Shown here one piece after another: positions 38,609 to 59,788 of a stretch of 64,000 nucleotides of DNA. How positions within the stretch are numbered: position 1 is the first letter of the stretch; every line of letters starts with the position of its first letter. A program made the position numbers and the translations under genes. Source of the stretch: an uncultured Gammaproteobacteria bacterium (GTDB taxonomy: Bacteria; Patescibacteriota; Microgenomatia; JAMCZE01); assembly GCA_964609775.1 (NCBI GenBank), contig CAZSSJ010000001.1, positions 22,858 through 86,857 on the forward strand. Reading direction: 5' to 3'. The notes below the pieces were generated by a model. The model was not told the DNA's origin. It worked only from the letters and a program-made list of their open reading frames with translations, and did not search any database.

Positions 38609-38719
38609 TAAATAGATTATACCTCTTAAGGAAAAGCGGGGAGGGAGGGGCGGATTTGGCAGGAAGGTTGTCGCAGCAATCTGCCGTGTGGCAGTCTGTC
38701 GGCCCAGGGAAAGAGAGCT

Positions 38720-39004
38720 TCAGGTTGCTATGATGGTTGATTTGCGACCAAAGTCGTCTTGCCAGATTTTGAGTTTTTGCCCTTTCGGATAGTGTGTCGT
38801 CACATCATTTCTTGAGTCTGGATATAGTTGGCTGACATTAAATCCTTCGCCTGGTGCCAGGGAAATGATTTCAAGTGGACTTTGTGCATCGGAAGATAAT
38901 TCCCACTTTTTTTCTCCTTGAGACAGTTCCCGGGGAAAACGGAATTTGGGTAACAGGCCTCCTTCTGGATGCCAAAAATTGTCATACTCTATCTTACAGG
39001 TCAT
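38720..39004 (-). CDS. Small hypothetical protein A (94 aa) behind the shared promoter module
   Basis: ATG lies 6 nt after the GAGAAT of the module. No family recognised. Confidence 0.5.
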   Translation of the reverse strand: MTCKIEYDNFWHPEGGLLPKFRFPRELSQGEKKWELSSDAQSPLEIISLAPGEGFNVSQLYPDSRNDVTTHYPKGQKLKIWQDDFGRKSTIIAT

Positions 39005-39039
39005 AGCCTTATTCTCTCTCTCTCTGCTTAATTTGTCAA
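39005..39039 (-). promoter_or_regulatory. Shared promoter module, copy A: TTGACA-N17[(GA)n]-GAGAAT-N6-ATG
   Basis: Minus strand reads TTGACAAATTAAGCAGAGAGAGAGAGAATAAGGCTATG. Confidence 0.6.
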
Positions 39040-39122
39040 GCTACGCTTGACAAAACCAGCCCCGGCGTTTTTTGTCGAGTTTGGGAGGGGCGGGTGAGCC
39101 TGATTTATGGTAAAATATGCTT

Positions 39123-39389
39123 ATGCTTAACTGGTCCACTGACGAAAAAGCCTTCAAGAAAAAAGACCCTAAGGGCTACAAATTGTGGAGGTTAACTCAG
39201 CTCATAAACTTCGGTCTTGACGGGGAAAAACTGTCGGAAAAAGAAGTCAGAAAAGCCTGGCCGAAGATCAAGGACAGGCTCGATCCCTACAAGGGCCGTT
39301 TGCTGGAGTTTCTTATATGGGGAAAACAATACTCACTCCCAAACAATATCAGTTTCTGGAACTGGCCGCTGCCGACCCAAAAATCGTAG
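39123..39389 (+). CDS. Small partner protein of AbiEii-like copy 2
   Basis: MLNWSTDEKAFKK..YKLWRLTQLINFGLDGEK. TAAAAT (39111-39116)-N6-ATG at 39123; the track ORF starts at 39117. Confidence 0.55.
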   Translation: MLNWSTDEKAFKKKDPKGYKLWRLTQLINFGLDGEKLSEKEVRKAWPKIKDRLDPYKGRLLEFLIWGKQYSLPNNISFWNWPLPTQKS

Positions 39390-39991
39390 CGAATTTCTAT
39401 CTCACTGGCGGCACGGCTCTGTCAGAATTTTATCTCCACCACCGCCTCTCTGAAGACATCGATCTTTTTTGCCCGAAAGAAGAAGTCGATCAAAAATTCG
39501 TAGAAATTTTCCTCAAAAAAATCTCACCAAAGATGGCAATCCAATATCTCCGCCCGACCGTATTCTTGGGTCTTGTCAGTTACAAATTGGTCTTCACGGA
39601 CAAAACAGAATTGAAAGTAGATTTTAACTATTACCCTTTCCTCCAAATCGATAGTGGTACCAAATTTAATAATCTGAGTGTCGACAGCCTTTATGATATT
39701 GCGGCAAACAAACTGCACACTCTTTTTATGAGACCACGATCGCGCGATTACGTGGATCTTTATTTTATTCTCCAGCAAGAAAATTATCCGTTAGAAAAGC
39801 TGATAATCGACGCCAAAATCAAGTTCGACTGGCACATTGATAACACGACTCTCGCCAGTCAATTCTCAAGAGTGCAAGATTTAGTTTCAACCGATTTACC
39901 AAAAATGCTCGTTCCTTTTGATCAAGAAAAGATGGAAAAATTTTTTCTTGATCTGGCGAAATCGCTCAAAGGAAAGATATTTAAAGAGTGA
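39317..39991 (+). CDS. Nucleotidyltransferase AbiEii/AbiGii-toxin-like protein (copy 2)
   Basis: FYLTGGTALSEFYLHHRLSEDIDLF. Overlaps the partner ORF by 73 nt. Confidence 0.6.
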   Translation: MGKTILTPKQYQFLELAAADPKIVANFYLTGGTALSEFYLHHRLSEDIDLFCPKEEVDQKFVEIFLKKISPKMAIQYLRPTVFLGLVSYKLVFTDKTELKVDFNYYPFLQIDSGTKFNNLSVDSLYDIAANKLHTLFMRPRSRDYVDLYFILQQENYPLEKLIIDAKIKFDWHIDNTTLASQFSRVQDLVSTDLPKMLVPFDQEKMEKFFLDLAKSLKGKIFKE

Positions 39992-40045
39992 GCAGGGTTG
40001 GGGCAAATTGCTTCGGAAAGCAGGGGCAGGTGGCTGACAGACACC

Positions 40046-40291
40046 TTAATAATTATCAAGAATTTTTTTGGCCTTTATTTTTCGTTTTTCTGCTTCTGGA
40101 CTGATTTTTAATTTTTGGTCGAATGGCGCTTTTTGGTAGTAGGGATGGCTGTATTTTGGAGTTTTGCTAAATTTCTCTGGCACGTTCTTCCAGCCACATG
40201 TAAGAAGTACTCTCGTCGCTGGACGCGGTTTGATTGGTTTTATTAAGTGAAGAGATTGTTCAGACACCCCTTCAGACACCCCTTCAGACAC
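40046..40291 (-). CDS. Small hypothetical protein B (81 aa), GTG start, N-terminal (SEGV)n from a 12-bp tandem repeat
   Basis: GAGAAT-N6-GTG. An ATG 2 nt upstream opens only a 16-codon frame. No family recognised. Confidence 0.35.
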   Translation of the reverse strand: MSEGVSEGVSEQSLHLIKPIKPRPATRVLLTCGWKNVPEKFSKTPKYSHPYYQKAPFDQKLKISPEAEKRKIKAKKILDNY

Positions 40292-40336
40292 ATGTTTATT
40301 CTCTCTCTCTCTCTCTCTCTCTGCTTAATTTGTCAA
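40292..40336 (-). promoter_or_regulatory. Shared promoter module, copy B: spacer 27 nt, (TC)11 on the plus strand
   Basis: TTGACAAATTAAGC + long (AG)n + GAGAAT. Confidence 0.5.
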
Positions 40337-40375
40337 GTTGGGACTGGCTGGGAATCGGAGGAAGGAAATCGCATC

Positions 40376-40404
40376 TTGACATCATTGCATCTTGATGAGA
40401 AAAT
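40376..40404 (+). promoter_or_regulatory. vapBC promoter giving a leaderless mRNA
   Basis: TTGACA-N17-GAAAAT-N6-ATG(40411). Confidence 0.55.
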
Positions 40405-40410
40405 GTGGGT

Positions 40411-40665
40411 ATGAACACAGTCAGAACGACGATTTCGCTGGAGGCGGATTTACACCGGCAAGTTTTGGCACAGGCCAACAACCTGGGCTTGTCCATGAGC
40501 GAAGTTGTTAACAAGCGACTGATGAATCCTAACTTCGGGAAGAGCCGGGCCCAGATTGAGGAAAAAATTGCTGAGGACCGGCGCTTTTTCAGGCAGTTGT
40601 CTCACAAGGGAAGAAAAGTTGATTTAGTTAAGGCTTTGAGAGAGGACCGGGACCGTGACAGTTGA
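40411..40665 (+). CDS. vapB: RHH/CopG-type antitoxin
   Basis: MNTVRTTISLEADLHRQVLAQANNLGLSMSEVVNKRL. Directly precedes and overlaps a PIN gene. The track ORF starts at 40405. Confidence 0.7.
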   Translation: MNTVRTTISLEADLHRQVLAQANNLGLSMSEVVNKRLMNPNFGKSRAQIEEKIAEDRRFFRQLSHKGRKVDLVKALREDRDRDS

Positions 40666-41074
40666 CAGGTTTGTCATTGACGCCAGCGTGGTTTTGGAAT
40701 GGGTGGAAACGAAAGAGTCGCCTCAAAAACAGAGGGCGCTTGGTCTCTATGAGCGGCTGGTGAAAGGTGAGGTGGCTTTTTCGGCGCCTTCATTTCTTCT
40801 GGTTGAGGTCATTAATGTGCTTTATTGGAAGAAAAGAAACACGGTTGAGGAGATCAGAGACTTTGTTGACCGGGTCAAGACTTCGGGGATTAATTTTGTT
40901 GACGGCGCGTTTTCAGCTGACGCCAGTGATGAGCTTCTGGATGCAGTTGGAAAGCATGAGATTACAGCCTATGACGCACAGTATGTGATTCTGGCAAAGA
41001 AGCTGGGAGTGAAGCTCCTGACGTTTGATGAGAAGTTGTTGGGGATTAAAGAAGTGGGTGCGGGGGAATGGTAG
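40655..41074 (+). CDS. vapC: PIN-domain toxin
   Basis: FVIDASVVLEW ... ITAYDAQYVILAKKLGVKLLTFDEKL. Confidence 0.8.
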   Translation: MTVDRFVIDASVVLEWVETKESPQKQRALGLYERLVKGEVAFSAPSFLLVEVINVLYWKKRNTVEEIRDFVDRVKTSGINFVDGAFSADASDELLDAVGKHEITAYDAQYVILAKKLGVKLLTFDEKLLGIKEVGAGEW

Positions 41075-41080
41075 AGAGAC

Positions 41081-41473
41081 CTACCATATTTCCTGTGGTC
41101 CATATTCCTGGTCGAAATCTTTTTGAGCTAAGCGAACATATTTCTCTTCGGTAATCTGCCAAGAGGTGCCGTCTCCCTTTGGATCCCATTCGGTGCGTAA
41201 TAGAACAGTGTTTGGTGTGCGGGTTTTCCAGCGAGATTCGCGAATGTCCGGCCTTTTTGTTCGAACCGCTTCATCATATTCATCGTATTTTCGACCCGTT
41301 AGTCCTATTCTTTCTTGAGCTAATCGACGGCCTTCTTCAGTCCAAGGACGAAATTCAATTCTCCTTCCTTGTTGGCCAGGTCCAAAACCAAGATTTGGAT
41401 GGAGAAAATAATCAAGTTCTATTTTATCCTGCTCAAATAGAGCTTGTGTCTCCGGCGATTGATTTACGGACAT
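41081..41473 (-). CDS. Small hypothetical protein C (130 aa), intact paralog of G
   Basis: Shares EGRRLAQERIGLTGRKY and TPNTVLLRTEWDPKGD with 48494-48877. Its stop is 6 nt from the vapC stop. Confidence 0.6.
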   Translation of the reverse strand: MSVNQSPETQALFEQDKIELDYFLHPNLGFGPGQQGRRIEFRPWTEEGRRLAQERIGLTGRKYDEYDEAVRTKRPDIRESRWKTRTPNTVLLRTEWDPKGDGTSWQITEEKYVRLAQKDFDQEYGPQEIW

Positions 41474-41508
41474 GGCCTTATTCTCTCTCTCTCTTCCTAA
41501 AAAGTCAA
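41474..41508 (-). promoter_or_regulatory. Shared promoter module, copy C (TTGACT variant): spacer 17, N6, ATG
   Basis: TTGACTTTTTAGGAAGAGAGAGAGAGAATAAGGCCATG. Confidence 0.6.
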
Positions 41509-41597
41509 ATTTGGTTGGGCCGGAAAAGTGGTCGTGTCTTATTTATGCGATCGCATTTTTAAGAAGTCAGTTGGTTGATAAGAGAAGATAGGATAAA

Positions 41598-41626
41598 TTG
41601 ACATTATTAATTGATTCGACTATAAT
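41598..41626 (+). promoter_or_regulatory. Consensus promoter of the wHTH/NTase pair
   Basis: TTGACA-N17-TATAAT, then a leader with AAGAGG before the ATG at 41647. Confidence 0.6.
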
Positions 41627-41646
41627 CGAAAAGAGGCATAAAACAT

Positions 41647-42234
41647 ATGAAGAAAATCGAACTCATTTGGCGGGAGATTCTAGAGAACGGACAGAAAGAT
41701 CCCGTTTTTGAACAGAAGGAGCTGGCGTCAAGACTGGGATTGTCCACGAGCACGGTTTTTGCGGCGCTTGAGCCATTGAGAGCAATTGGAGCGGTAACGG
41801 TTGGCGGCCGGGGGTTTCGGTTGACTAATTTTTCCAAAGTGCTCTTCTTTTGGGCGACGCATCGAAATTTGGCCAAAGATATCGTTTACAAAACGAGGGT
41901 TGATCTGCCAATGGTCGAAATTGAGGGCCTGGTTGACAACGAAACGATTTACGGGGCATATAGTGCCGGCCGCAGGCTTCTGGGGCAGGCTCCGGCTGAC
42001 TATGACAAAGTCTATCTTTATGCCTCAAAAACAGACAATTTGATCAGGAGATTTCCGAGGGCGGGGGGGGCAGCCAACGTTTTTGTCCTGCAGGCTGATC
42101 CGGGCTTGCCGGCTTTTGGCAAAATGACCCCGGTGTCGCAGACGTTTGTTGATTTGTGGAATTTGCCGGACTGGTTTGCGCAGGATTTTTTGGAGGCTTT
42201 AAAGGAGAAATTTTATGGCGGATTATTATCATGA
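41647..42234 (+). CDS. Winged-HTH protein (AbiEi/MarR-like; candidate antitoxin or regulator)
   Basis: QKELASRLGLSTSTVFAALEPLRAIGAV HTH. Overlaps the downstream NTase-fold gene by 20 nt. Confidence 0.5.
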   Translation: MKKIELIWREILENGQKDPVFEQKELASRLGLSTSTVFAALEPLRAIGAVTVGGRGFRLTNFSKVLFFWATHRNLAKDIVYKTRVDLPMVEIEGLVDNETIYGAYSAGRRLLGQAPADYDKVYLYASKTDNLIRRFPRAGGAANVFVLQADPGLPAFGKMTPVSQTFVDLWNLPDWFAQDFLEALKEKFYGGLLS

Positions 42235-42826
42235 TTTAGTGACTGACAAGAGTTGGAAGACTTTGCAGGAACTTAAGAGCCAGGTGGATTTTGTGCTCAT
42301 CGGCGGGTGGGCGGTTTATTTATATACAAAAGCTTTGAAGTCGAAAGACATTGACATTATTGTCAATTTTGACCAACTGGACAGATTAAGGAGTCAATTT
42401 GAGGTCGTCAAAAATGAGCGGTTGAAGAAATATGAAGCGAGGCGCGAGGAAGTCCAGATTGATGTCTATTTGCCGCACTTCAGCGAAATTGGAGTGCCCA
42501 TTGAGGAGGTTGTCAAAAGGGTCGTTTCCCGGGAGACGTTTGTGGTTCCGGTGCCGGAGGCGCTTCTCATTTTGAAGCAGTTTATTTTGGGGCAGAGGGG
42601 GCTGTCGGCCAAGGGCCAAAAAGACCGACTGGACATCTTGTCGATCCTCCTTTCGGTTGAGGTGAACTTTAGGGAATATCGCAAATTAACGCAGGCGTGG
42701 GGCTTGACTTCTTTTCCTTCGGAGCTGGCGGAACTTGTTTCGACAACGGTCAGAATTCCGGAGCTATCGGTTGATGAGTATCAATGGTCGAAGGTGAAAA
42801 AGAAGGTTTTGAACTTGGTGGCTTAG
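42215..42826 (+). CDS. Nucleotidyltransferase-fold protein (candidate toxin partner)
   Basis: LIGGWAVYLY...SKDIDIIV matches the G[GS]-x-D.D minimal NTase motif. Confidence 0.5.
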   Translation: MADYYHDLVTDKSWKTLQELKSQVDFVLIGGWAVYLYTKALKSKDIDIIVNFDQLDRLRSQFEVVKNERLKKYEARREEVQIDVYLPHFSEIGVPIEEVVKRVVSRETFVVPVPEALLILKQFILGQRGLSAKGQKDRLDILSILLSVEVNFREYRKLTQAWGLTSFPSELAELVSTTVRIPELSVDEYQWSKVKKKVLNLVA

Positions 42827-42888
42827 CGTCGGGTTTTTAGTTGTCTCCCGTGTTTAGATTTGTGGTCCGAGAGCTTGAGAATATGACA

Positions 42889-43344
42889 TTAGTTTTGAGG
42901 TTGGAGCATTTTGATGAGACTGCCTAGTCTTGCTGCTTGATCTTCGCCGATCGTTGATGCAGTCTGGGCTGCACCGAGGAATTCTTCACGTAGAAATTGT
43001 CTTTCAGGGTTCCTTCCTAGGGCTACTGCGTCCTTTCCCTCTGCTGAGGCCGCGCTTTCGAGCCATTTTGCCTGGTCTATTTTCAGATAATTTATTGCTT
43101 TTTGCCTGGCAGCCGGGTCGTTGTTTTTTAATCCCGTGGCAATCTGTTCGATTACTGCGCGGCCAGCTTCGTACATGGCCCGGATTTCCCCTTGATCATC
43201 GCCCCAACCCTCGCCTGCTTTTTCAGCCGCCTCAAGCTCATGCTCAAAGTAGGTTATCGGATTAGCGTAGATTTCGTTCGATTCGGCTTCGTACCAATGA
43301 GGGAATCTGCCAGTTTGAGTTGTTTTTTCTGTTCTGTCAGCCAT
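42889..43344 (-). CDS. Small hypothetical protein D (151 aa from the ATG at 43344)
   Basis: GGAGGT lies 7 nt upstream of the ATG. The track ORF starts at a TTG at 43359. No family recognised. Confidence 0.5.
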   Translation of the reverse strand: MADRTEKTTQTGRFPHWYEAESNEIYANPITYFEHELEAAEKAGEGWGDDQGEIRAMYEAGRAVIEQIATGLKNNDPAARQKAINYLKIDQAKWLESAASAEGKDAVALGRNPERQFLREEFLGAAQTASTIGEDQAARLGSLIKMLQPQN

Positions 43345-43395
43345 TTGAATTACCTCCAAGGTCTATTGTCTCTCTCTCTCTTCCTAAAAAGTCAA
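43345..43395 (-). promoter_or_regulatory. Shared promoter module, copy D (TTGACT variant): spacer 19, -10 GACAAT, SD-containing leader
   Basis: TTGACTTTTTAGGAAGAGAGAGAGAGACAATAGACCTTGGAGGTAATTCAAATG. Confidence 0.55.
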
Positions 43396-43440
43396 ATTTT
43401 GGCTTTGCGTTTTGGCTACGAAGTTGATATACTCTGAGAA

Positions 43441-43716
43441 ATGCAAACTACGCTTCTTAACTACCGAATCATTGTTGAGCCCGACAGCCAAACTGGAACA
43501 GGCAAGCTTGGATACACAGCCTATGCACCCACCTTGGGAGTGGCTGATGATGGAAAGACAATTGAAGAGGCAATTAAAAATGTTCGGGGCGCAATTGAAG
43601 CATTTGTGGAAAGTTTGATCGTTGATGGGCAACCAGTGCCAACAGACCGAGTGGAGCAAGATCTTGTGGCGACGGCACAAATTTCGGTTAACGGCCCGGT
43701 TCAATTCGCTTTTTAA
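43441..43716 (+). CDS. hicB: HicB-family antitoxin
   Basis: YRIIVEPDSQTGTGKLGYTAYAPTLGVADDGKTIEEAIKNVRGAIEAFVESL. TATACT-N7-ATG. Confidence 0.75.
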   Translation: MQTTLLNYRIIVEPDSQTGTGKLGYTAYAPTLGVADDGKTIEEAIKNVRGAIEAFVESLIVDGQPVPTDRVEQDLVATAQISVNGPVQFAF

Positions 43717-43937: not shown

Positions 43938-44374
43938 TTGGGAGATGGGGTTTCTGGTGGACTTGAGAACTTTTCTAGTTGTTTTGCTAGAGCCCTGAAA
44001 CCTGACAAAAACCATGTCTCGCCTTCATCCTCACTTTTTTTTGGTTCGAGACCGTACTCTTCAGACATTGCGTTGACAACTCCTGAGAAGTCGTTCAGGG
44101 TCTGAGCAGTTCTGAGGGCGTCTTGCCACAACTGTATACCTTGTTCCGCTGCCGCATACATTGCTGGGTCGTCTTGTGGATCTACACGGTTCCTGATTAT
44201 TAGCTCATTATTGAGTCTTGTTTGGGCGAGCAGAATTGCATCCTGCCGAGCTTTTCGGTCGGATACCGATTTTCCAACATATCTGTTTCTAAACTCAGCT
44301 GGTAGTCTGTTTTCCAGAACTGCCCAAGCTTTCCTGGGATTAAAGTTCTCTTCAACATTATTTTTTTCTGACAT
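43934..44374 (-). CDS. Small hypothetical protein E (146 aa)
   Basis: The ATG follows GAGAAT-N7. Its 3' end overlaps the hicA stop by 4 nt. No family recognised. Confidence 0.5.
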   Translation of the reverse strand: MSEKNNVEENFNPRKAWAVLENRLPAEFRNRYVGKSVSDRKARQDAILLAQTRLNNELIIRNRVDPQDDPAMYAAAEQGIQLWQDALRTAQTLNDFSGVVNAMSEEYGLEPKKSEDEGETWFLSGFRALAKQLEKFSSPPETPSPN

Positions 44375-44420
44375 TTGTTTTATTCTCTCTCTCTCTCTCT
44401 CTCTCTGCTTAATTTGTCAA
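44375..44420 (-). promoter_or_regulatory. Shared promoter module, copy E: spacer 27 nt, (TC)11
   Basis: TTGACAAATTAAGC + (AG)n + GAGAATAAAACAAATG. Confidence 0.5.
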
Positions 44421-44455
44421 GCTTGGACAATCCAGAATGGCCCAGGAGAATTTTA

Positions 44456-44496
44456 GGGAAAATGTTCGATGTTTTGTGATCGCGTTTTATGGAACA
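44456..44496. repeat. Palindromic element copy 2 (left arm and core each degenerate by one base)
   Basis: GGGAAAATGTTCGATGTTTTGTGATCGCGTTTTATGGAACA. Sits between the ruvB stop and module E. Confidence 0.75.
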
Positions 44497-44577
44497 AAAT
44501 GTTGGGTGGGAGAACGGCGTGGATTTTGTGTCAATCTGGACGAGAGGTTTCTTGGGGCAGTAGCAGTGGTGGGGATG

Positions 44578-46181: not shown

Positions 46182-46274
46182 TGATTAATTTGAAATTTGA
46201 AATTTTAAATTTGAAATCAATTTTCAATTTAAAATGTTTCAATTTCAAAACCAGACATTTTTAAAACCCGTACA
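46182..46274. repeat. AT-rich TTTGAAA/TTCAAAT palindromic spacer (same family as 4909-5036)
   Basis: aatttgaaatttgaaattttaaatttgaaat faces attttcaatttaaaatgtttcaatttcaaaa. Confidence 0.8.
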
Positions 46275-46763
46275 TTATTTTTGAGCGAGGCGCATTTTGT
46301 AACTAAATGAATGAGTGATGGCGACGGCCAGAGCGTCGGCGGCGTCGTCGGGCCTCGGAACGGTCTTTAAATTCAGAACTGATTTTACCATCATTTGGAT
46401 CTGATATTTATCGGCCCGGCCGTAGCCTGTCAGAGCCTGTTTAATTTGAAGAGGGGTGTAGGAATGGAGAGACAGACTTTTGAGTTGGGCGCAGAGGAGA
46501 ACAATGCCGCGAGACTGGCCGACAGCCAGAGCGGTTTTGGCGTTGGCGGCAAAAAATAGCTCCTCGACAGCCAGGGTGTGGGGGTGATGGGTGGTGATGA
46601 GTTTTTCCAGAAAGCGAAAAATGATTTCCAGACGCTCCTCTTCGGGGAGGTGGGCGGCGGTTTCCTGACAGCCGAAATCGATGAGATCAAGCCTGCCTTG
46701 ATCATCTTTAATGAGCCCCCAACCGAGGCGGGCAAAACCGGGATCAATGCCCAAAATTTTCAT
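46275..46763 (-). CDS. ruvC: Crossover junction endodeoxyribonuclease RuvC
   Basis: MKILGIDPGFARLGWGLI..., RuvC length and motifs. Confidence 0.9.
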   Translation of the reverse strand: MKILGIDPGFARLGWGLIKDDQGRLDLIDFGCQETAAHLPEEERLEIIFRFLEKLITTHHPHTLAVEELFFAANAKTALAVGQSRGIVLLCAQLKSLSLHSYTPLQIKQALTGYGRADKYQIQMMVKSVLNLKTVPRPDDAADALAVAITHSFSYKMRLAQK

Positions 46764-46775
46764 AGGGCTATTATA
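46764..46775 (-). promoter_or_regulatory. Perfect -10 box placing the ruvC ATG at the predicted transcription start (leaderless)
   Basis: Minus strand reads TATAAT-agccct-ATG. No SD is possible in 6 nt. Confidence 0.45.
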
Positions 46776-46825: not shown

Positions 46826-47104
46826 TTAAGTTTTTAAGCAGTTGGCGTTTTGCTGGAGGGTCCTCTCACTTATTCTTGAGATTGAAGATAGGCTAGCTCC
46901 CCCTTCCGTGCTGCCGAATCCCCCACAAGAGATTGCTTCAGGACTGGTTTCCTTAAATAGGGGGCAGCTTAGGCAGTATCTTCGGAACAGCTCTGACGGA
47001 CCGAAGAATTCAGGGTCTTCATAGGACACTATTAGCAGAAAGCCGGCATAGTCACTGGTCGGGGAGTATCGTATTGTTGCTTCAGGCTGCTCGACTTCTA
47101 ACAT
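46826..47104 (-). CDS. Small hypothetical protein F (92 aa)
   Basis: The ATG follows GAGAAT-N7 of the module. No family recognised. Confidence 0.45.
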   Translation of the reverse strand: MLEVEQPEATIRYSPTSDYAGFLLIVSYEDPEFFGPSELFRRYCLSCPLFKETSPEAISCGGFGSTEGGASLSSISRISERTLQQNANCLKT

Positions 47105-47140
47105 GGCCTTTATTCTCTCTCTCTCTGCTTAATTTGTCAA
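47105..47140 (-). promoter_or_regulatory. Shared promoter module, copy F: spacer 17, N7, ATG
   Basis: TTGACAAATTAAGCAGAGAGAGAGAGAATAAAGGCCATG. Confidence 0.6.
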
Positions 47141-48493: not shown

Positions 48494-48877
48494 CTATTTA
48501 GGTTCGTGGCGGGAATATTCTTCCTCGAAGTCTTCAGGTGGGAGCCGGACATATCTTTCTTCTTTCGTCGGCCAAGTGTCGTCTCCTTTTGGATCCCATT
48601 CTGTCCGTCGCAGGACCACGTTTGGGGTGCAGGTTTCCAGAACAGACTTGCGGGCGAGGCCAAATTCTTGGTCAAAAGTTACTTCCTGGTATTTTCGGCC
48701 GGTTAGACCTATTCTTTCTTGGGCAAGTTGACGCCCTTCCGAAGTGTGAGGAGTAAAGTCCACCCACTTGCCTGCTTGGGTAGGTCCAAGTCCTAGCTCG
48801 GCGGTTAGGAACTATTCCAGGCGACCTTTGTCGTCTTTAATTTGTTGTTCATTTCTTTCTTGAGAGATTGCAGACAT
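48494..48877 (-). pseudogene. Small gene G, paralog of C, interrupted by an in-frame TAG at 48812-48814
   Basis: From the ATG at 48877: MSAISQERNEQQIKDDKGRLE-stop-FLTAELGLGPTQAGKWVDFTPHTSEGRQLAQERIGLTGRKY... The stop aligns with the Tyr of ...IELDYFLHPNLGFGP in C. Confidence 0.6.
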
Positions 48878-48912
48878 GGCTTTATTCTCTCCCTCTCTTC
48901 CTAAAAAGTCAA
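48878..48912 (-). promoter_or_regulatory. Shared promoter module, copy G (TTGACT variant, interrupted GA tract): spacer 17, N6
   Basis: TTGACTTTTTAGGAAGAGAGGGAGAGAATAAAGCCATG. Confidence 0.55.
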
Positions 48913-53257: not shown

Positions 53258-53301
53258 TGGGGATTAATGTCAGTCGAGTTTAAGGCAGAAAGCCTTGGTT
53301 G

Positions 53302-54333: not shown

Positions 54334-55594
54334 ACCAGTTGGTGGTCCAGACGTAAGAGGAATCTCCGATCATGGGAGTCCCCGAGGGAATTGGGGCGAA
54401 GAGATTGATGGCGCCACGCATGGCGGGCTCGTCAACGGGGTCAAGGTGATAACCGGATTCTGACCAGAGTGTCTCCATAATGCAGCTGCCAGAGGTGGAT
54501 TTGTAACGGTTGGTGTAGGTGCAGATGGTGTAGCAGTTTGTTCCGGGGATTCCTGACCATTTGCCACAAGCAGAAGAGGTATCACAGTTTGCGTGAATGT
54601 TTCGGTTGGGGTTGGTTTCAATTTTGTTGTAATCATATTCATCATTTAAGTTTCCGATGCCATGACCTAATTCATGATAGAGGGTAAGTCCGGGAAAAGG
54701 CAGATTTGATTGTGATCGTGACATGAGGGCATACTTGATTGGCGGATAATAGGACCAGCCAATCTTGTCGTCGATGCCTTCAAGAATAACAATGAAGTCG
54801 TAGTTGGTTTGGGAAGCGATGTTGTAGATTAAAGCACTGTCGCAATCAAGATTTTCAGCGTTATTAAAACTGTTACACAAGATTTGATCGTTGTGGATTT
54901 TCGCGAATCTGATTTTTGATCGATATTCGTTCCAAGGTGACTGAGCCAGGAGGAAGTTAGTCATACTGCTAACGTCCGCATCAAATAGGTCAAAGTCGGA
55001 ATAGCGGTCGCTTATAAAGGTAAGGTCAAGGTAACCGTCAGAGGAAAGACCCGACTGGGGAGCCGGAGTGTTAGATGACTTGACAACATAACTTTTTTTA
55101 AGGATTGCCGATTGAATCTTTAGGCTGTCTAAGACTTGGGTCTTTTTTGGCTGGCTATGGCGAATTTGGATTGTAGCGCCCGTTTGGTAAGGGAAAGAGA
55201 TTACCACTCGGGGCTCGGAAAAAATCTTATCCTGTCTATTGATTTGTTTTTTTTCAGAAGCGAAAGTTTCGATGGCGAGACTGTCAGTAAATTTAATGCT
55301 TGCTTTCCAGGTGGTTTTTCCGTTTAAAACTTGTTCGATTTCATCAGTTTCACTGTCAGTTTTTTGGTTTGGCAAGTAGGGGGTATAGCCATTGTTGGCG
55401 AGGGCTTTTTGAATGGAGATTTTGCCGGTGGTGGGGTTTTTGGTTAAGACGAGGATGAGGTTGGTGTCTGCTTTGAGGCCAGTAGCTTTGTCTTGGAGAC
55501 GGGTTTGTTGGGTGACAATAAATAGAGTTGCACCTAGGAGGGGGAGGAGGAGAAGGACGAGAGTGAGGCTGAGGGTGGCGGCACCTTTTTTCAT
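54155..55594 (-). CDS. Secreted M64 (IgA-peptidase-like) zinc metalloprotease, truncated by a frame change in the poly-C tract
   Basis: Signal peptide. HELGHGIGNLNDEYDY matches the M64-type HExxHxxxxLxDEY. Ends 15 codons after the poly-Pro. Confidence 0.65.
   Translation of the reverse strand: MKKGAATLSLTLVLLLLPLLGATLFIVTQQTRLQDKATGLKADTNLILVLTKNPTTGKISIQKALANNGYTPYLPNQKTDSETDEIEQVLNGKTTWKASIKFTDSLAIETFASEKKQINRQDKIFSEPRVVISFPYQTGATIQIRHSQPKKTQVLDSLKIQSAILKKSYVVKSSNTPAPQSGLSSDGYLDLTFISDRYSDFDLFDADVSSMTNFLLAQSPWNEYRSKIRFAKIHNDQILCNSFNNAENLDCDSALIYNIASQTNYDFIVILEGIDDKIGWSYYPPIKYALMSRSQSNLPFPGLTLYHELGHGIGNLNDEYDYNKIETNPNRNIHANCDTSSACGKWSGIPGTNCYTICTYTNRYKSTSGSCIMETLWSESGYHLDPVDEPAMRGAINLFAPIPSGTPMIGDSSYVWTTNWCVPDVKTCLTSGLIKPAYSDYNSYCSNTAPLLCSGYEQSPPPPPPPAPPATTLRKPADD
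54188..54218. repeat. G8-C-G18-C-G3 homopolymer tract (poly-Pro codons on the minus strand)
   Basis: Read directly: G run 54188-54195 and G run 54197-54214. Confidence 0.95.
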
Positions 55595-55651
55595 GGGTAT
55601 AGTTATAGTATTTAGATTATTACTCCCACAAGGCCTGTCAAGGGTTCAGGA

Positions 55652-55794
55652 TTGACAGTAAGATGGCCGACTAGTAAGATTAGACCGTATGAATGGTCGT
55701 GTTTTGCTTTTGGCTCTCCTTCAAAGCTCGCAATAGCGGGGAAGGTTTGTTGGCAAAACACATCTTAATCCCGCAAAAGGCGGGATTTTTTGTT
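55652..55794 (+). promoter_or_regulatory. Promoter plus structured ~110-nt transcript ending in an intrinsic terminator (cis-leader of the 4HB-leuS operon, or a small RNA)
   Basis: TTGACA(55652)-N17-TAAGAT(55675). 9-bp stem GTGTTTTGC(55699)/GCAAAACAC(55753). Inner CTCGC-aata-GCGGG hairpin. No plus-strand gene lies upstream. Confidence 0.45.
55767..55794 (+). terminator. Rho-independent terminator
   Basis: AATCCCGC-aaaag-GCGGGATT followed by TTTTGTT, 12 nt before the ATG at 55806. Confidence 0.7.
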
Positions 55795-55805
55795 AGGATT
55801 AGCCT

Positions 55806-56408
55806 ATGGATCAGGAAAATTGGGGGAATCAGGGAGATCAGTTTAAGAAAGCGGGCTACCAGTATCTGTTGGCTTGGAAAATAACTGTTCCCATTTATGA
55901 TTACACTGTCATTTTTTGCAGGAAGTATCGCAGATTGCTCTCTTCTGAGCGGACTTATGACCAGATGGTGCAGGCGGCCAGAAGCGGGACACAAAATGTT
56001 CCGGAGGGAAATCAACAGGCAAGTCTTGAAGGCTACATCAAATTGACTGGTGTTAACAAAGCCTCATTGGAGGAACTATTGAGGGATTTCCTGGCGTTTG
56101 CCAGACAGAATCAGATTCCAATTTGGTCAAAGGAAAGGTGTGTCAGGGAAATTAGGGAAATTGGGGAGATCTGGGGGATTCTTAAAAATAATAAAACGCT
56201 CCCTGACGATCCCAATTTCCCGAATTTCCCTGACAAATTGGAGATCGGCGTCAATTTAATGATAACATTGGTCCATCAAGCAATTTTTCTTCAAGGGAAA
56301 TTAAAGGAGTCTTTGGAGAAAAAGTTCATCGAGGAAGGTGGTTTTAGAGAGAACTTGTTTAGAAAGAGAATGGACTGGCGAAGGAGGCAGAATGGACAGG
56401 AAGTATGA
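55806..56408 (+). CDS. Four-helix-bundle protein (23S rRNA IVS / Avd-like family) with C-terminal suffix domain
   Basis: YQYLLAWKITVPIYDYTVIFCRKY...TYDQMVQAARSGTQNVPEG...ASLEELLRDF matches the family pattern from memory. Confidence 0.55.
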   Translation: MDQENWGNQGDQFKKAGYQYLLAWKITVPIYDYTVIFCRKYRRLLSSERTYDQMVQAARSGTQNVPEGNQQASLEGYIKLTGVNKASLEELLRDFLAFARQNQIPIWSKERCVREIREIGEIWGILKNNKTLPDDPNFPNFPDKLEIGVNLMITLVHQAIFLQGKLKESLEKKFIEEGGFRENLFRKRMDWRRRQNGQEV

Positions 56409-58977
56409 ACCGGCAGAGATAGAGAAGAAGTGGCCCTCCTTCGCCAAGGCTTCGGACGGGCAAGCAGGACGTTATAACCATCGGGAGATTGAGCATAAGT
56501 GGCAGGAGGTGTGGGAAAAAGAGAAACTATATCTAACTCCAAAACCTGATGCCGAGCATCCGAAGAGATACATTTTGGATATGTTTCCCTACCCGTCGGG
56601 GGCGGGACTTCATGTTGGGCATATGGAAGGCTACGTGGCCACGGATGTTATTGTCAGATACCTGCGGATGAAGGGGCTTTCGGTTCTTCACCCGATGGGC
56701 TGGGACGCGTTTGGCCTGCCGGCCGAGAATTATGCGATTAAAGAAGGAATTGCCCCTGATAAGTCGACGCACGAGAATATCAAGAATTTTAAGTATCAGC
56801 TTCAACTTTTGGGACTGTCTTATGATTGGTCCAAAGAAATAGATACATCTAGCCCGAAGTATTACAAATGGACACAGTGGTTGTTTACGCTGCTGTTTAA
56901 AAAGGGCTTAGCCTATAAAAAGAAAGCGCCGGCGAATTGGTGCCCCAAGGACGAAACGGTGCTGGCCAACGAGCAGGTGGTTGATGGGAAATGCGAACGG
57001 TGCGGGACGGCGGTAGTGCAAAAGGAATTGGAGCAGTGGTTTTTTAAGATTACGGATTATGCGGATAAGCTGATTTCCGGTCTGGACAAAGTCGATTGGC
57101 CGGAATCGACCAAGACGCAGCAGGTTAACTGGATTGGGAAGAAAGAGGGCATCGAAATTACTTATGAGGTGGTAGGTGTTCCTGACGAAATTACTGTTTT
57201 TACGACTGCTCCGGTTAACTTTGGGATGACCTTTTTGGTTTTAGGACCAGAACACCATTTCGTCCAGAAAATTATTTCTGGTGAAATTAAGATTTCTTCT
57301 GAGACTCAAAAAGAAGTTAAGGATTATGTTGAGGCGGCGGGTAAAAAGACAGAACTGGAGAGGATCGCTGCGGGTAGGGAGAAGACAGGGGTGTTTACCA
57401 CTTTATATGCAATTAACTCCATTAATGGTAAAAAAGTGCCGATTTATGTGACTGATTTTGTTTTAGGGCATGTGGGTACTGGTGCGGTTCAAGGTTGCCC
57501 GGCGCATGATCTTAAAGACTTTCAGTTTGCAAAGAAGTTTAACTTGCCGATCGTTAGAGTTGTTGAGGGTCCCGATGGTGATGCTGGACCGGTAGAGAGA
57601 GAAGATCAGATTATTGAAAAGGGAATGCGGGGTACATTTATTAATTCAGAGTTTTTGAACGGCTTGAGTTTTGAGGGAGGACTGCAAAAGACGATGGACT
57701 ATTTTGTTGAAAAAGGCGTTGGTAGGAGGGTGGTGACCTATCACATTCGGGATTGGCTGATTTCGAGGCAGAGATATTGGGGGTGCCCGATCCCGATGGT
57801 GTTTTGCGAAAAAGACAGCTGGCAGCCTGTTCCTGATTCAGAACTACCTATTTTGTTACCAACTGATATAGATTTTCGACCGACCGGGGAATCACCGATT
57901 GCCAGATCAGGGTCTTTCCAAAAAGGGGTAAGGTGCCCGGTTTGCGGGGAGGCAGCCAAGCGGGAGGTAGACACCATGGACACTTACGTCGACTCCTCAT
58001 GGTATTTTTACCGCTTTGTAGATCCGGATAATAACAAAAAATTCGCTTCGAAGAAGGCTCTCGAAACATGGATGCCGGTGGACATTTATGTTGGCGGCGG
58101 GCATGTGGTCCAGCACCTGCTGTTTGCCCGATTCTTCCACAAAGTTCTCGTCGATGCAGGATATATTAAGGGTGATGGCGCTGGTGAGCCTTTCCTAAAG
58201 CTTAGAGCGCCGGGATGGATTTTGGGCCCGGACTCTCGCAAGATGAGCAAGCGCTGGGCGAACGTTATCACTCCGGAGGAAGTGGTTGCCAAACATGGAG
58301 CGGACACGATGCGGATGTATGAGATGTTTATGGCGCCGTTTGAAGTCGATAAACCGTGGAATGTCAACTCGGTGGCTGGGGTGCAGCGCTTTTTGAGCCG
58401 AATTTACGGTTTGTTTGAAAGATCTTATCAGTTGAAGGACGCAGTTGCTGGCGAAGCAATGGCTCGTGAGATTAATAAATTGGTTTTTAAGGTCGGCAAA
58501 GATATTGAGGGTTTCAAGTTCAATACGGCAGTGGCTGCCATGATGGAGTTTGTGAATCAGGTACAGGCAGGATTGAAGACGAAGGAGCAGGGTGAAGGAA
58601 GCTACACCTGGAGAGTGGTTTGGGAGAAGTTTCTGACCGTTTTGGCGCCGTTTGCGCCGCATTTGGCGGAGGAGCTGTGGTCCCACTTCGCCAAGGCTTC
58701 GCGGGACAAGCATGGATATGTTTCTGTCCATCAGCAGTCGTGGCCGGAGGTTGATGAGAAATATCTGGGCCAGGAAAGCAGGACGATCGTGGTGTCGATT
58801 AATGGCAAGGCGAGAGCGACATTGAAAATGAGCAATGGGCAATCCTCAATGAGCAATAGCCAGGAGGAGGTTGAGAAGTTGGCGAGAGGAGATCAGAATG
58901 TGGCGAAGTGGCTGGAAGGGAAAGAGGTTAAGAAAGTGGTCTACGTACCAGGCAAGATTGTCAACTTCGTCGTTTAA
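56392..58977 (+). CDS. leuS: Leucine--tRNA ligase
   Basis: FPYPSGAGLHVGHMEGY (HIGH region), KMSKRW (KMSKS). ATG at 56392 after GAAGGAGG; the track ORF opens at 56338. Confidence 0.95.
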   Translation: MDRKYEPAEIEKKWPSFAKASDGQAGRYNHREIEHKWQEVWEKEKLYLTPKPDAEHPKRYILDMFPYPSGAGLHVGHMEGYVATDVIVRYLRMKGLSVLHPMGWDAFGLPAENYAIKEGIAPDKSTHENIKNFKYQLQLLGLSYDWSKEIDTSSPKYYKWTQWLFTLLFKKGLAYKKKAPANWCPKDETVLANEQVVDGKCERCGTAVVQKELEQWFFKITDYADKLISGLDKVDWPESTKTQQVNWIGKKEGIEITYEVVGVPDEITVFTTAPVNFGMTFLVLGPEHHFVQKIISGEIKISSETQKEVKDYVEAAGKKTELERIAAGREKTGVFTTLYAINSINGKKVPIYVTDFVLGHVGTGAVQGCPAHDLKDFQFAKKFNLPIVRVVEGPDGDAGPVEREDQIIEKGMRGTFINSEFLNGLSFEGGLQKTMDYFVEKGVGRRVVTYHIRDWLISRQRYWGCPIPMVFCEKDSWQPVPDSELPILLPTDIDFRPTGESPIARSGSFQKGVRCPVCGEAAKREVDTMDTYVDSSWYFYRFVDPDNNKKFASKKALETWMPVDIYVGGGHVVQHLLFARFFHKVLVDAGYIKGDGAGEPFLKLRAPGWILGPDSRKMSKRWANVITPEEVVAKHGADTMRMYEMFMAPFEVDKPWNVNSVAGVQRFLSRIYGLFERSYQLKDAVAGEAMAREINKLVFKVGKDIEGFKFNTAVAAMMEFVNQVQAGLKTKEQGEGSYTWRVVWEKFLTVLAPFAPHLAEELWSHFAKASRDKHGYVSVHQQSWPEVDEKYLGQESRTIVVSINGKARATLKMSNGQSSMSNSQEEVEKLARGDQNVAKWLEGKEVKKVVYVPGKIVNFVV

Positions 58978-59026
58978 CCGTTTTTATCTGTGTAAAATGA
59001 ATTCAGAAGATAATGAGTTAAGATCT

Positions 59027-59344
59027 TTATCCCTTAGGTTTTATTTTGGGCTTCAGATTTGTATCTAAGTTGAGCTTTGAGAGAATTTCGTTTATGCCTT
59101 CGTCTCCTGGATGAAAATGTTTCCAACCATCATCTCGAGTGTATCCTCTCTCAGACCCGGTTCCGCGGCTTGCGAGTCTGATATAGAATACCGTTTCACT
59201 GTTGTCGTATAAAGTTAAACTGCCAGACCAGATTCCATCGCCACCGGCAAAAGCACGACTAGGATCAAGAGCAATCATATCTGCGTGGTTTAAAGAAACA
59301 GTTCTCACGATAGTTGGACGATCTTTTTGGTCTGGATCTTTCAT
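59027..59344 (-). CDS. Small hypothetical protein H (105 aa)
   Basis: The ATG follows GAGAAT-N7 of the module. Divergent from phd-relE. No family recognised. Confidence 0.5.
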   Translation of the reverse strand: MKDPDQKDRPTIVRTVSLNHADMIALDPSRAFAGGDGIWSGSLTLYDNSETVFYIRLASRGTGSERGYTRDDGWKHFHPGDEGINEILSKLNLDTNLKPKIKPKG

Positions 59345-59378
59345 TTCGCCTATTCTCTCTCTCTGCTTCTTTTGTCAA
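59345..59378 (-). promoter_or_regulatory. Shared promoter module, copy H: spacer 15, N7, ATG
   Basis: TTGACAAAAGAAGCAGAGAGAGAGAATAGGCGAAATG. Like copy A, it is followed upstream by the palindrome TTGTCAAGC-nnn-GCTTGACAA. Confidence 0.55.
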
Positions 59379-59468
59379 GCCCAGCTTGACAAAACTAGCC
59401 CTGGCGTTATTTGTCAAGTCCGGGCGGGCTGGAGATGGAGTGGCTGGAGATGGAGAGTAAATGCAATA

Positions 59469-59497
59469 TTGACAAAGCGTACGGTTTGACGTACGAT
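59469..59497 (+). promoter_or_regulatory. phd-relE promoter giving a leaderless mRNA
   Basis: TTGACA-N17-TACGAT-N6-ATG(59504). Confidence 0.55.
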
Positions 59498-59503
59498 TGT
59501 GGT

Positions 59504-59788
59504 ATGAATACGACGACTTTACCCCAAAATTTGACCGTGAGTCAGGCTCGTGCGAATCTTTATGATTTGATTGAAGAAGTGGGTTCGAAGTTGCGTCGAT
59601 TTGTCATTTCTCACAAGGGAAGGCCGACGGCGGTGGTGATGCCTGTGGAGGATTTGGAAAGTTGGGACGAAACGTTGGAGATTATGGCGAACAAGAAGTT
59701 GATGAGGTCTATTAAAAAGGCTCAAAGGGAATATGGGCGCGGTGAGGCAATTAGTTTTGAGGAAGTCAAGAAAAAATTGGGTATATGA
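59504..59788 (+). CDS. phd: Phd/YefM-family antitoxin
   Basis: LTVSQARANLYDLIEEVGSKLRRFVISHKGRPTAVVMPVEDLESWDETLEI. The track ORF opens at 59411. Confidence 0.8.
   Translation: MNTTTLPQNLTVSQARANLYDLIEEVGSKLRRFVISHKGRPTAVVMPVEDLESWDETLEIMANKKLMRSIKKAQREYGRGEAISFEEVKKKLGI

Follow-up and report, generated by a model that had tools for sequence, protein, structure and literature searches.

The window, by which we mean the whole 64,000-nucleotide stretch analysed here, belongs to a Rifle-aquifer contig whose host is an ultra-small groundwater bacterium of the Microgenomates (CPR). It carries an AbiEii toxin–antitoxin (TA) pair with a small gene in the antitoxin position, a paralogue of that gene, and the antitoxin genes vapB, hicB and phd, together with ruvC, atpG, atpD, leuS and a series of small ORFs preceded by copies of one (GA)n-containing module (Table 1). 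The small antitoxin-position proteins and the module ORFs had no family in Pfam, PADLOC or NCBIfam, and scanning the window for Rfam families and tRNAs yielded no matches.

Gene starts with a nearby -10 hexamer

Each -10/N6-7/start string listed in the original prediction is present at its position. The 13 cases open with 12 ATG codons and one GTG, and nine of these codons are the 5′-most possible start of their ORF. Both ATG 38608, in the 98-aa antitoxin-position ORF, and ATG 43441, in hicB, are the sole possible starts, and public gene calls agree for the latter. All of the cases lie 3′ of an intergenic or divergent region, making them first in a transcription unit, with the exception of the AbiEii toxin start at 38414 inside the antitoxin ORF. 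It had been claimed that such starts leave no room for a Shine–Dalgarno (SD) sequence, and indeed just 6–7 nt separate box and ATG. Equally well founded was the claim of clear SD sites at other genes, namely atpG (GAGG-N9-GTG), atpD (GGAGG-N4-ATG), leuS (AGGAGG-N4-ATG) and module gene D. Many genes of the window have neither an SD sequence nor a nearby -10 box, including those at 36358, 47292, 50262, 53257 and 60802.

Table 1. Positions and start geometry of the features in the window (PWM rank is among 3190 scored ATG/GTG codons)
Feature	Position	Strand	Geometry and remarks	PWM rank
ruvC	46761..46775	-	TATAAT 46775-46770, N6, ATG 46763; T at -1; ATG is the 5′-most start in the ORF	15
Antitoxin-position gene, first of AbiEii TA pair, 98 aa	38606..38621	-	TATAAT 38621-38616, N7, ATG 38608	2
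Paralogous antitoxin-position gene	39108..39125	+	Extended -10 TGG-TAAAAT (39111-39116), N6, ATG 39123; T at -1	1
AbiEii toxin start	38412..38427	-	TGC-TAGAAT-N7-ATG 38414, ~100 nt within antitoxin ORF	9
vapB (antitoxin 5′ of PIN toxin)	40376..40413	+	TTGACA 40376-81, N17, (TGA)GAAAAT 40399-404, N6, ATG 40411; T at -1	8
hicB	43425..43443	+	Extended -10 TGA-TATACT (43428-33), N7, ATG 43441; without SD	10
phd	59469..59506	+	TTGACA 59469-74, N17, TACGAT 59492-97, N6, ATG 59504; T at -1	Outside top 45
Module copy A	39002..39039	-	TTGACA-N17-GAGAAT-N6-ATG 39004; 94-aa orphan ORF	32
Module copy B	40289..40336	-	TTGACA, 27-nt spacer with expanded (GA)n, GAGAAT-N6-GTG 40291	16
Module copy C	41471..41508	-	TTGACT-N17-GAGAAT-N6-ATG 41473; 130-aa orphan ORF	34
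Module copy D	43342..43395	-	-10 degraded to GAGACA; TTG 43359, then GGAGG-N8-ATG 43344; SD-led	
Module copy E	44372..44420	-	TTGACA, 27-nt spacer, GAGAAT-N7-ATG 44374; 146-aa orphan ORF	
Module copy F	47102..47140	-	TTGACA-N17-GAGAAT-N7-ATG 47104; 92-aa orphan ORF directly upstream of ruvC	21
Module copy G	48875..48912	-	TTGACT-N17-GAGAAT-N6-ATG 48877; ORF of merely 21 codons	
Module copy H	59342..59378	-	TTGACA-N15-GAGAAT-N7-ATG 59344; 105-aa orphan ORF, divergent from phd	

The geometry had also been used to move three ORF starts downstream. The shift from 39117 to 39123 is upheld by the paralogue alignment and by homologues, and that from 59411 to 59504 by the Pfam PhdYeFM domain, aligned from residue 10, and by one phd homologue (L090) in which the same geometry recurs as TTGACA-N16-TATGAT-N6-ATG. 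The shift from 40405 to 40411, at vapB, agrees with the geometry, its one basis; the GTG at 40405 is an alternative on which homology is silent. Both vapB and phd carry repeats that look operator-like: the direct repeat GCATCTTGA occurs twice across the -35 box and spacer of vapB, and CGTACG occurs twice across the spacer and -10 box of phd.

The AbiEii toxin start at 38414 is a candidate for an internal leaderless promoter, and an internal promoter would be required there. TAGAAT or TAGAGT stands at N7 in 30 of 51 homologue loci, GGAG in six and neither in 15, counts confounded by coding constraint in that the box coincides with conserved L/I-E-F codons. The paralogous toxin at 39317 has GGAG-N8-ATG, made of the same Leu-Glu codons. 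Two further candidates were set aside. The start at 55806 (TAGGAT-N6-ATG), which is located after a terminator- or attenuator-like element, was downgraded as an extra leaderless case, as the AGGA inside its hexamer stands at N7, an SD distance. A second class of starts, with a -10 box ~19–22 nt upstream and hence short SD-less leaders, was visible in the window and absent from 540 kb of related DNA, and was dropped.

Conservation among relatives and expectation by chance

The most extensive comparison comes from the small antitoxin partnered with AbiEii, for which 60 distinct metagenomic homologue loci were collected (47–74% protein identity). In 49 of them a TANNNT hexamer, mostly TATAAT, lies exactly 6 nt 5′ of the ATG, with an extended -10 (TG at -15/-14) in 37 of the 49 and a pyrimidine at -1 in 47. 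The flanks vary freely, and the 6-nt spacers comprise 42 different sequences. An SD-like 4-mer (GGAG, GAGG or AGGA between -16 and -5) was found at a single locus of the 60, and 50 had no upstream alternative start. The resulting logo reads A-16 T-15 G-14 n TATAAT N5 Y and then ATG, with no conservation upstream of -16.

Results for the remaining genes were more varied. One ruvC orthologue (L136, 65% identity) also has TATAAT-N6-ATG, a second (L135, 68%) has TATAAT-N9 on a contig where two further genes show TATAAT-N6-ATG, and two (L007 and L008) have TANNNT-N7; the geometry is missing at ruvC in most relatives examined, among them L130, L133 and many of L007–L023. In the window itself ruvC lies 62 nt downstream of module gene F on the same strand, and read-through from upstream promoters could conceivably yield leadered transcripts. 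The one hicB homologue has N9, and no relatives of hicB, phd or vapB were found in the viral contigs scanned.

The distribution of -10-to-ATG distances, proposed originally as a check, points the same way as the antitoxin family. After removal of the TA pair, strict -10 boxes were counted by their distance k before ORF-first ATGs in the 540 kb of related contigs, which gave 27 boxes at k = 6 and 17 at k = 7, as compared with 3.2 on average at each other distance. Among the genes of these relatives, ribosomal proteins L14, L15, L16 and S4, RpoA, DnaK and GrpE are SD-led, while HEPN, Fic, antitoxins, def, dus, sigma-70, rpsT and an rfbA-like gene show the leaderless geometry. The proposal that leaderless starts are enriched among accessory genes held in the window, where all five TA first genes have the geometry versus two of ~15 others, one of the two being the ambiguous 55806 (Fisher P = 0.001). 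In the relatives, however, def, dus, rpsT, sigma-70 and the rfbA-like gene share it, and the TA enrichment is therefore explained in part by the make-up of TA modules, which are autonomous units of two genes and bring their own promoters.

It might be argued that all of this is chance, in that -10-like hexamers are common in AT-rich intergenic DNA and will fall near starts, particularly where the choice of start was free. The starts at 39123, 40411 and 59504 were picked to fit the geometry, GAAAAT and GAGAAT are loose -10 matches, and TANNNT-N6/7-ATG is not over-represented in the whole window relative to shuffles (13 versus 17.9 expected, and 21 versus 17.5). A plain motif count without window-wide excess cannot settle the question, and distance profiles and the ranking of gene starts by a position weight matrix (PWM) were used instead; what is non-random is the coincidence of the pattern with real gene starts. 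With a PWM trained on the upstream regions of homologues and applied to all 3190 ATG/GTG codons of the window, six of ~20 independent first-gene starts fell in the top 1% (binomial P = 3e-8, or P = 3e-5 once the two genes with homologues in the training set are left out), P values that are inflated by the lack of phylogenetic independence among the homologue loci. The ambiguous 55806 is one of the six, and with five of 20 the excess is still far beyond chance; the -10 of phd (TACGAT) is weak by this measure. Together with these ranks, the sharp peak at k = 6–7, the box kept at exactly N6 with variable spacers in the antitoxin loci, and the want of any alternative start at nine of the 13 cases make coincidence a very remote explanation.

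Probable leaderless initiation alongside SD-led genes

A -10 box 6–7 nt from the start codon would make transcription begin at or next to that codon, leaving no 5′ UTR and no SD sequence. From the observed geometry and its conservation, and from the absence of SD sequences and of alternative starts, we infer the 5′ end and leaderless translation, and we put the probability that these sigma70-type boxes give rise to leaderless mRNAs coexisting with SD-led ones at roughly 0.8, assuming an E. coli-like promoter consensus. The original prediction of both modes in one organism is thus supported, by the antitoxin family, the 540-kb peak and the ruvC relative with TATAAT-N6-ATG. Mechanistically, the housekeeping sigma factor would bind the -10 hexamer 6–7 nt 5′ of the start codon, helped at some promoters by the TGn extension and at others by a consensus TTGACA at 17 nt. 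The first base transcribed by RNA polymerase would then be the A of the start ATG or, at some N7 sites, the base before it, and a leader of 1 nt may be present where an N7 site has A at -1. On an mRNA lacking both 5′ UTR and SD, the ribosome would have to initiate on the 5′-terminal AUG. TA pairs would as a rule have such a start at their first gene, and ruvC would have one too, with SD-led initiation serving the atp genes, leuS and operon-internal genes of the same genome.

It is also conceivable, if improbable, that the box acts in translation, as an A/U-rich signal within a longer mRNA that has a leader and no SD, as in the non-SD initiation of Bacteroidota, or that both transcript forms occur. 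SD-independent initiation on leadered mRNAs must take place to some extent, given the many window genes with neither SD nor close -10, and gene F and ruvC could share a transcript. However, TG at -15/-14 and a pyrimidine at -1 correspond to contacts and preferences of RNA polymerase and not to those of the ribosome, the distance is fixed within 1 nt, conservation ends at -16, and a consensus TTGACA lies 17 nt upstream of the box at vapB, phd and the module, all of which argues for promoters.

The leaderless reading finds close parallels in known systems. In one, the transcription start site is fixed by a start element, Y(-1)R(+1)Y(+2), whose centre lies 7–8 bp downstream of the -10 box (PMC12641261). 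A pyrimidine followed by ATG (Y-A-T) at N6 or N7 fits this element exactly, with the difference that here it also serves as the initiation codon. In Mycobacterium tuberculosis, 32 of 37 TA pairs and none of the ribosomal proteins are leaderless, growth genes are SD-led, and the leaderless transcripts start on the start codon from a TANNNT -10 without a conserved -35, with a purine start, a pyrimidine at -1 and a TGn extension on 7% of TANNNT motifs (PMC3898074, Cortes et al. 2013). A matching division appears in the present data, between TA genes with the leaderless geometry and SD-led ribosomal-protein and growth genes, but the box is near-full TATAAT and usually TGn-extended (37/49), the lineage is Patescibacteria/Microgenomates with reduced ribosomes, and the case is made by computation. 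Leaderless genes have likewise been predicted computationally in Actinobacteria and Deinococcus-Thermus, from a promoter-like signal ~10 nt upstream of the start, in the “group C” genomes of GeneMarkS-2. As there, a good part of the first genes have, in place of the SD sequence, a -10-like signal at a short and constant distance from the start codon, although the literature searched held no report of this kind for CPR/Patescibacteria.

CPR/Patescibacteria make up a large portion of bacterial diversity, with reduced ribosomes and gene expression that has been little explored by experiment. Leaderless initiation is a well-known mechanism in mycobacteria, and the novelty lies in the lineage, the mechanism itself being already known. 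No relevant report on leaderless mRNAs in CPR, Patescibacteria, Saccharibacteria or Microgenomates came to light in the literature searched, where the sole statement on CPR translation signals was that some Parcubacteria have lost the anti-SD motif (PMC9297842). An extended -10 followed by N6 and ATG would offer a rule, applicable to sequence alone, for finding promoters in CPR genomes, correcting start codons misplaced by gene callers and predicting the genes that are translated independently of an SD. Moreover, the link between leaderless starts and TA modules, known from M. tuberculosis, would then hold in a lineage far removed from it, which suggests that the link stems from the autonomy and autoregulation of TA operons in general and is not limited to actinobacteria.

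A repeated (GA)n module before orphan ORFs

Eight minus-strand copies of TTGAC(A/T)-(GA)n-GAGAAT-N6/7-start occur in the window, six with ATG and one with GTG, copy D differing. In seven of the eight, the ORF that follows is 81 codons or longer. The original prediction had counted seven of the eight genes as leaderless; the strings are as described, with the qualifications that the ORF of copy G is very short and that the spacer, in which the repeat tract lies, measures 15 (H), 17 or 27 nt (B and E) by copy. These seven genes represent one duplicated promoter-like sequence and not seven independent cases, and they are a weaker case for leaderless starts because GAGAAT lacks a T at -12 and the spacer of B and E is 27 nt. 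At copy H, a palindrome (TTTGTCAAGC..GCTTGACAAA) spans the -35. A search of 5.8 billion proteins found no homologue of protein E apart from members of the 99%-identical cluster to which it belongs. None of the first 123 related loci contained the module, which was later found solely in the ruvC relative L135, before different ORFs and with the ATG 5–6 nt after GAGAAT.

The repeat probably gives the same type of start to unrelated small orphan genes. A competing view, doubtful but to be taken seriously for the module, is that TTGACw-(GA)n-GAATAA has another role, as a regulatory element, as a junction left by recombination or by a mobile element, or as a purine-rich tract on which ribosomes load, and that transcription begins at some other place. 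The missing T-12 and the 27-nt spacers would fit this, as would the retention of (GA)n in two sequence subtypes, given that promoter spacers are usually unconstrained and the tract is unexplained by promoter function; the occurrence before unrelated ORFs in two organisms would suit a mobile or recombining unit. Against it, all ten copies have TTGAC unchanged, at a distance of exactly 17 nt from the -10 box in five of those in the window (A, C, D, F and G), the start codon follows the box by 5–7 nt in nine of the ten, and the one degraded box, in copy D, goes with a GGAGG SD. Ribosome loading in particular is at odds with a (GA)n tract that is not complementary to the CCUCC anti-SD and with a subsequent AAGG that is not conserved.

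Taking the module as a promoter, it is tempting to draw a broader and frankly speculative picture, in which leaderless initiation would be a principal, selected mode of expression of first genes in this lineage of Microgenomates, possibly tied to the reduced CPR ribosome, and in which a portable 40-bp TTGACw-(GA)n-GAGAAT-N5-7-ATG cassette with a slippage-prone spacer would drive, and may switch, the leaderless expression of rapidly replaced orphan genes lying back-to-back with TA modules. Promoters with simple sequence repeats phase-vary through their -35/-10 spacing, as in Haemophilus hif and Neisseria opc and nadA; to our knowledge, no phase-variable promoter with a GA repeat as its spacer has been described. 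The long-tract module copies differ from the known examples in being 10 nt off the optimum and not 1–2 nt, and switching here would be a possibility read from sequence. The likeness lies in a dinucleotide repeat within the -35/-10 spacer whose length varies among copies and samples, the (GA) tract of copy E having 11 or 12 units depending on the sample.

Putative promoter geometry at gene starts

All of the -10 box and start codon strings of the original prediction were found at their coordinates in the window, with 6–7 nt between hexamer and start codon (Table). Pfam identified two AbiEii toxins, each with a small gene before it, as well as a PIN toxin downstream of the 84-aa gene at 40411 and the HicB/HicA and Phd/ParE pairs. 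Operator-like repeats, judged by sequence, overlap the putative vapB and phd promoters. In 9 of 13 cases, the start codon is the sole possible start of its ORF, and the absence of room for a Shine–Dalgarno (SD) sequence is therefore independent of start choice in those nine.

Table. Start geometry and module copies in the window
Feature	Position	Strand	Sequence
ruvC	46763 (start)	minus	TATAAT-N6-ATG
antitoxin-position gene	38608 (start)	minus	TATAAT-N7-ATG
antitoxin-position paralogue	39123 (start)	plus	TGG-TAAAAT-N6-ATG
vapB, 84-aa gene	40411 (start)	plus	TTGACA-N17-GAAAAT-N6-ATG
hicB	43441 (start)	plus	TGA-TATACT-N7-ATG
phd	59504 (start)	plus	TTGACA-N17-TACGAT-N6-ATG
module copy	39002-39039	minus	TTGACw-(GA)n-GAATAA-ATG
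module copy	40289-40336	minus	TTGACA-(GA)n-GAGAAT-N6-GTG
module copy	41471-41508	minus	TTGACw-(GA)n-GAATAA-ATG
module copy	43342-43395	minus	TTGACw-(GA)n-GAGACA, then GGAGG-N8-ATG
module copy	44372-44420	minus	TTGACw-(GA)n-GAATAA-ATG
module copy	47102-47140	minus	TTGACw-(GA)n-GAATAA-ATG
module copy	48875-48912	minus	TTGACw-(GA)n-GAATAA-ATG
module copy	59342-59378	minus	TTGACw-(GA)n-GAATAA-ATG

As a bare pattern, TANNNT-N6/7-ATG is not enriched across the window; what is non-random is its position at gene starts, not its frequency. A position matrix built from the upstream regions of antitoxin homologues was applied to all 3190 ATG/GTG triplets of the window and ranked 39123 first and 38608 second, with 40411 (rank 8), the AbiEii toxin start at 38414 (9), 43441 (10) and ruvC (15) behind them, and then several module genes. 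Six of ~20 independent first-gene starts lay in the top 1% of matrix scores (P = 3e-8, or 3e-5 once the two genes with homologues in the training set are removed). One of these six, 55806, is ambiguous, and without it the count of 5/20 is still far beyond chance.

Conservation in antitoxin homologues and related DNA

The two antitoxin-position paralogues are 55% identical when aligned, and the alignment favours the proposed correction of one start from 39117 to 39123. A metagenome scan with this alignment, using patterns that constrained the N-terminal peptide and not the upstream DNA, yielded 80 loci (47–74% protein identity) with 60 distinct upstream sequences. TANNNT, nearly always TATAAT, stands exactly 6 nt before the ATG in 49 of the 60, and these 49 commonly have an extended -10 (TG at -15/-14; 37 loci) and a pyrimidine at -1 (47 loci). 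The six-base spacer itself occurs in 42 different versions, and there is no conservation upstream of -16 among the 60 sequences. Only one of them has an SD-like 4-mer, and 50 have no in-frame alternative start upstream. As counts, these loci are not phylogenetically independent. The logo (A-16 T-15 G-14 n T A T A A T N5 Y, then ATG) reads as a site recognized by RNA polymerase rather than one bound by the ribosome. In a cross-phylum study, a “start element”, Y(-1)R(+1)Y(+2), was found to set the transcription start in 93% or 79% of cases when centred 7 or 8 bp after the -10, respectively (PMC12641261). A pyrimidine plus A-T-G placed 6–7 nt past the hexamer is exactly this element, and the A of the ATG is therefore predicted to be +1.

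The geometry extends to the flanks of the homologue loci, which amount to 540 kb of related DNA. With the toxin–antitoxin (TA) pair itself left out, 27 ORF-first ATGs there have a strict -10 box at distance 6 and 17 have one at distance 7, compared with 10, 8 and 9 at distances 8–10 and a mean of 3.2 per distance elsewhere; SD 4-mers are only weakly enriched in the same DNA.

We propose that a sigma70-type promoter sets the transcription start on the start codon, and for ruvC and the TA genes we put the probability of this at 0.8 or higher. The start would be placed by the -10 box in combination with the YRY start element and with either a TGn extension or a consensus TTGACA spaced 17 nt away. 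A 1-nt leader would be equally possible at 38608, 43441, and modules E and H, where the spacer is N7 and -1 is A. The resulting mRNA would have no SD, and the ribosome would have to initiate on a 5′-terminal AUG. What was observed is the geometry, how well it is kept, and that SDs and alternative starts are missing; the 5′ end and the mode of translation are inferred. Chance co-occurrence of -10-like boxes and starts is excluded by the N6 box kept in the antitoxin loci, the distance peak in the related DNA and the matrix ranks in the window. Alternatively, the box could act as an A/U-rich ribosomal enhancer on longer transcripts, but such a role accounts neither for the pyrimidine at -1 nor for TG at -15/-14 or the upstream TTGACA. 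Leadered transcripts could possibly be made in addition to the leaderless ones.

Within the AbiEii loci, the toxin ATG lies ~100 nt inside the antitoxin ORF (38412-38427, minus; 39300-39319, plus; homologue loci L050-L130). Of 51 loci, 30 write the Leu/Ile-Glu codons before it as (TGn)TAGAAT-N7-ATG and 6 as GGAG-N8-ATG, and the window has both versions, the -10 form at 38414 and the SD form at 39317. Among the synonymous options the choice is always nTA GAA, a hint that an internal leaderless promoter may be under selection, with coding constraint as a confounder.

Initiation modes, lineage and the (GA)n module

SD-led genes are present in the same window (atpG, atpD, leuS and module copy D, as originally proposed, as well as 42215 and 39317), and beside the leaderless geometry they indicate that the organism uses both modes. 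A perfect TTGACA-17-TATAAT (41598-41626, plus) lies 20 nt before an SD-led HTH gene at 41647, and a TATAAT-N7-ATG (62158-62173, plus) has an ATG at 62171 that opens only a 6-codon ORF, with a Trp-repressor-like gene (62298) 125 nt downstream. Both look like ordinary leadered promoters of the same island.

The suggested enrichment of leaderless starts among accessory genes holds within the window, where the geometry occurs at each of the five TA first genes versus 2 of ~15 other first genes (Fisher P = 0.001), these two being ruvC and the ambiguous 55806. It is real but not exclusive, since housekeeping genes in relatives share the geometry: besides antitoxins, HEPN and Fic, it occurs at peptide deformylase, dihydrouridine synthase, sugar nucleotidyltransferase, sigma-70 and rpsT. 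The SD-led set in relatives consists mostly of ribosomal proteins L14/L15/L16/S4, RpoA, DnaK, GrpE and Ddl. Part of the TA enrichment follows from the autonomy of TA modules, which are units with promoters of their own that are probably autoregulated. The split agrees with the pattern of M. tuberculosis, where 32 of 37 TA pairs and no ribosomal proteins are leaderless (PMC3898074).

RuvC (46275-46763, minus) has an identical protein on MFJK01000007.1 (GCA_001780905.1) and several Rifle-aquifer metagenome scaffolds, and its closest species-level relatives are from Daviesbacteria, Gottesmanbacteria and Beckwithbacteria (50–60% identity); the window is therefore part of a CPR/Patescibacteria (Microgenomates) genome. 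Among the closest ruvC relatives, TATAAT-N6-ATG with T at -1 occurs at locus L136 (65% identity) and TATAAT-N9 at L135 (68%), and L133 has no comparable -10 geometry upstream, so a leaderless ruvC would be recurrent and not fixed. At locus L130, an AbiEii gene directly precedes ruvC. In uncultured Clostridia (L028-L048), two ruvC-adjoining genes, encoding a 237-aa protein starting MSGH and a 239-aa protein, keep TGnTATACT/TATAAT-N6/7-ATG across ~15 species, and the conserved geometry is thus not CPR-only.

The predicted shared module was borne out as eight minus-strand copies of TTGAC(A/T)-(GA)n-GAGAAT-N6/7-start (six ATG and one GTG), with copy D having GAGACA as its box and then a GGAGG-led ATG. 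Seven of the module genes do have the geometry, but the eight copies are one duplicated sequence and not independent cases. All copies keep TTGAC, which in 5 of the 8 window copies is 17 nt from GAGAAT; the spacer is 27 nt in copies B and E and 15 nt in copy H. L135 has two further copies (1-50, 1826-1863), each followed after 5–6 nt by an ATG that opens an ORF with no relation to those of the window, and across the two organisms the start codon is 5–7 nt past the box in 9 of 10 copies. The GA tract has 11 versus 12 units between samples. The TTGAC spacing, the start distance and the SD where the box is degraded (copy D) favour a leaderless promoter, a reading that we consider fairly probable; against it stand a GAGAAT without T at -12, the 27-nt spacer in two copies and a (GA)n tract conserved without a promoter-related reason. 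Unrelated orphan ORFs follow the copies, and each is oriented divergently to a TA or defence-type gene on the plus strand. The ORF of copy G has only 21 codons, and a search of 5.8 billion proteins gave protein E no homologue beyond the 99%-identical cluster to which it belongs.

Relation to known systems and further features of the window

Mycobacteria are an established case of leaderless mRNAs and of their link to TA modules, and the logic of the promoter is textbook knowledge. In the literature that we searched, leaderless genes were reported for none of CPR, Patescibacteria, Saccharibacteria or Microgenomates; the only related statement was that part of the Parcubacteria have no anti-SD motif (PMC9297842). 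What is new is therefore the lineage and not the mechanism, and it bears on the annotation of CPR genomes and on thinking about translation by their reduced ribosomes.

Upstream of 55806 and leuS (56392), a candidate leucine leader-peptide attenuator occupies 55652-55795 (plus). TTGACA-N17-TAAGAT-N8-ATG opens a 15-codon ORF (MNGRVLLLALLQSSQ, five Leu) within a strongly structured ~115-nt element (z = -6.45), which ends in an intrinsic terminator, CCCGCaaaagGCGGG + T7, with an upstream GCGGG that could form an antiterminator. Rfam gave full-length but sub-threshold matches to Phe_leader and Trp_leader, and the operon that follows has leuS together with a gene for a four-helix-bundle protein (TIGR04258).

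Irrespective of gene orientation, GC skew stays between +0.1 and +0.38 along almost the full 64 kb and drops to ~zero only at 30–34 kb, in agreement with the G/C strand disparity of the Microgenomates order UBA1400 (PMC7143001). Intergenic heptamer tandem arrays (2548-2644, 4908-4950, 46187-46249) lie in or beside core operons, with downstream genes that have no SD: (CATCAAT) x14 between atpA and atpG, and (AATTTGA) x4 both downstream of atpD and in the gap from ruvC to ruvA. In L133, (AAATTTC)n (about 2293-2335) stands immediately before rpsL. Finally, the stretch 5946-28067 (plus) has two giant ORFs (5325 and 2038 aa) with many internal repeats (families D1-D10) and with GTG starts that have no SD.
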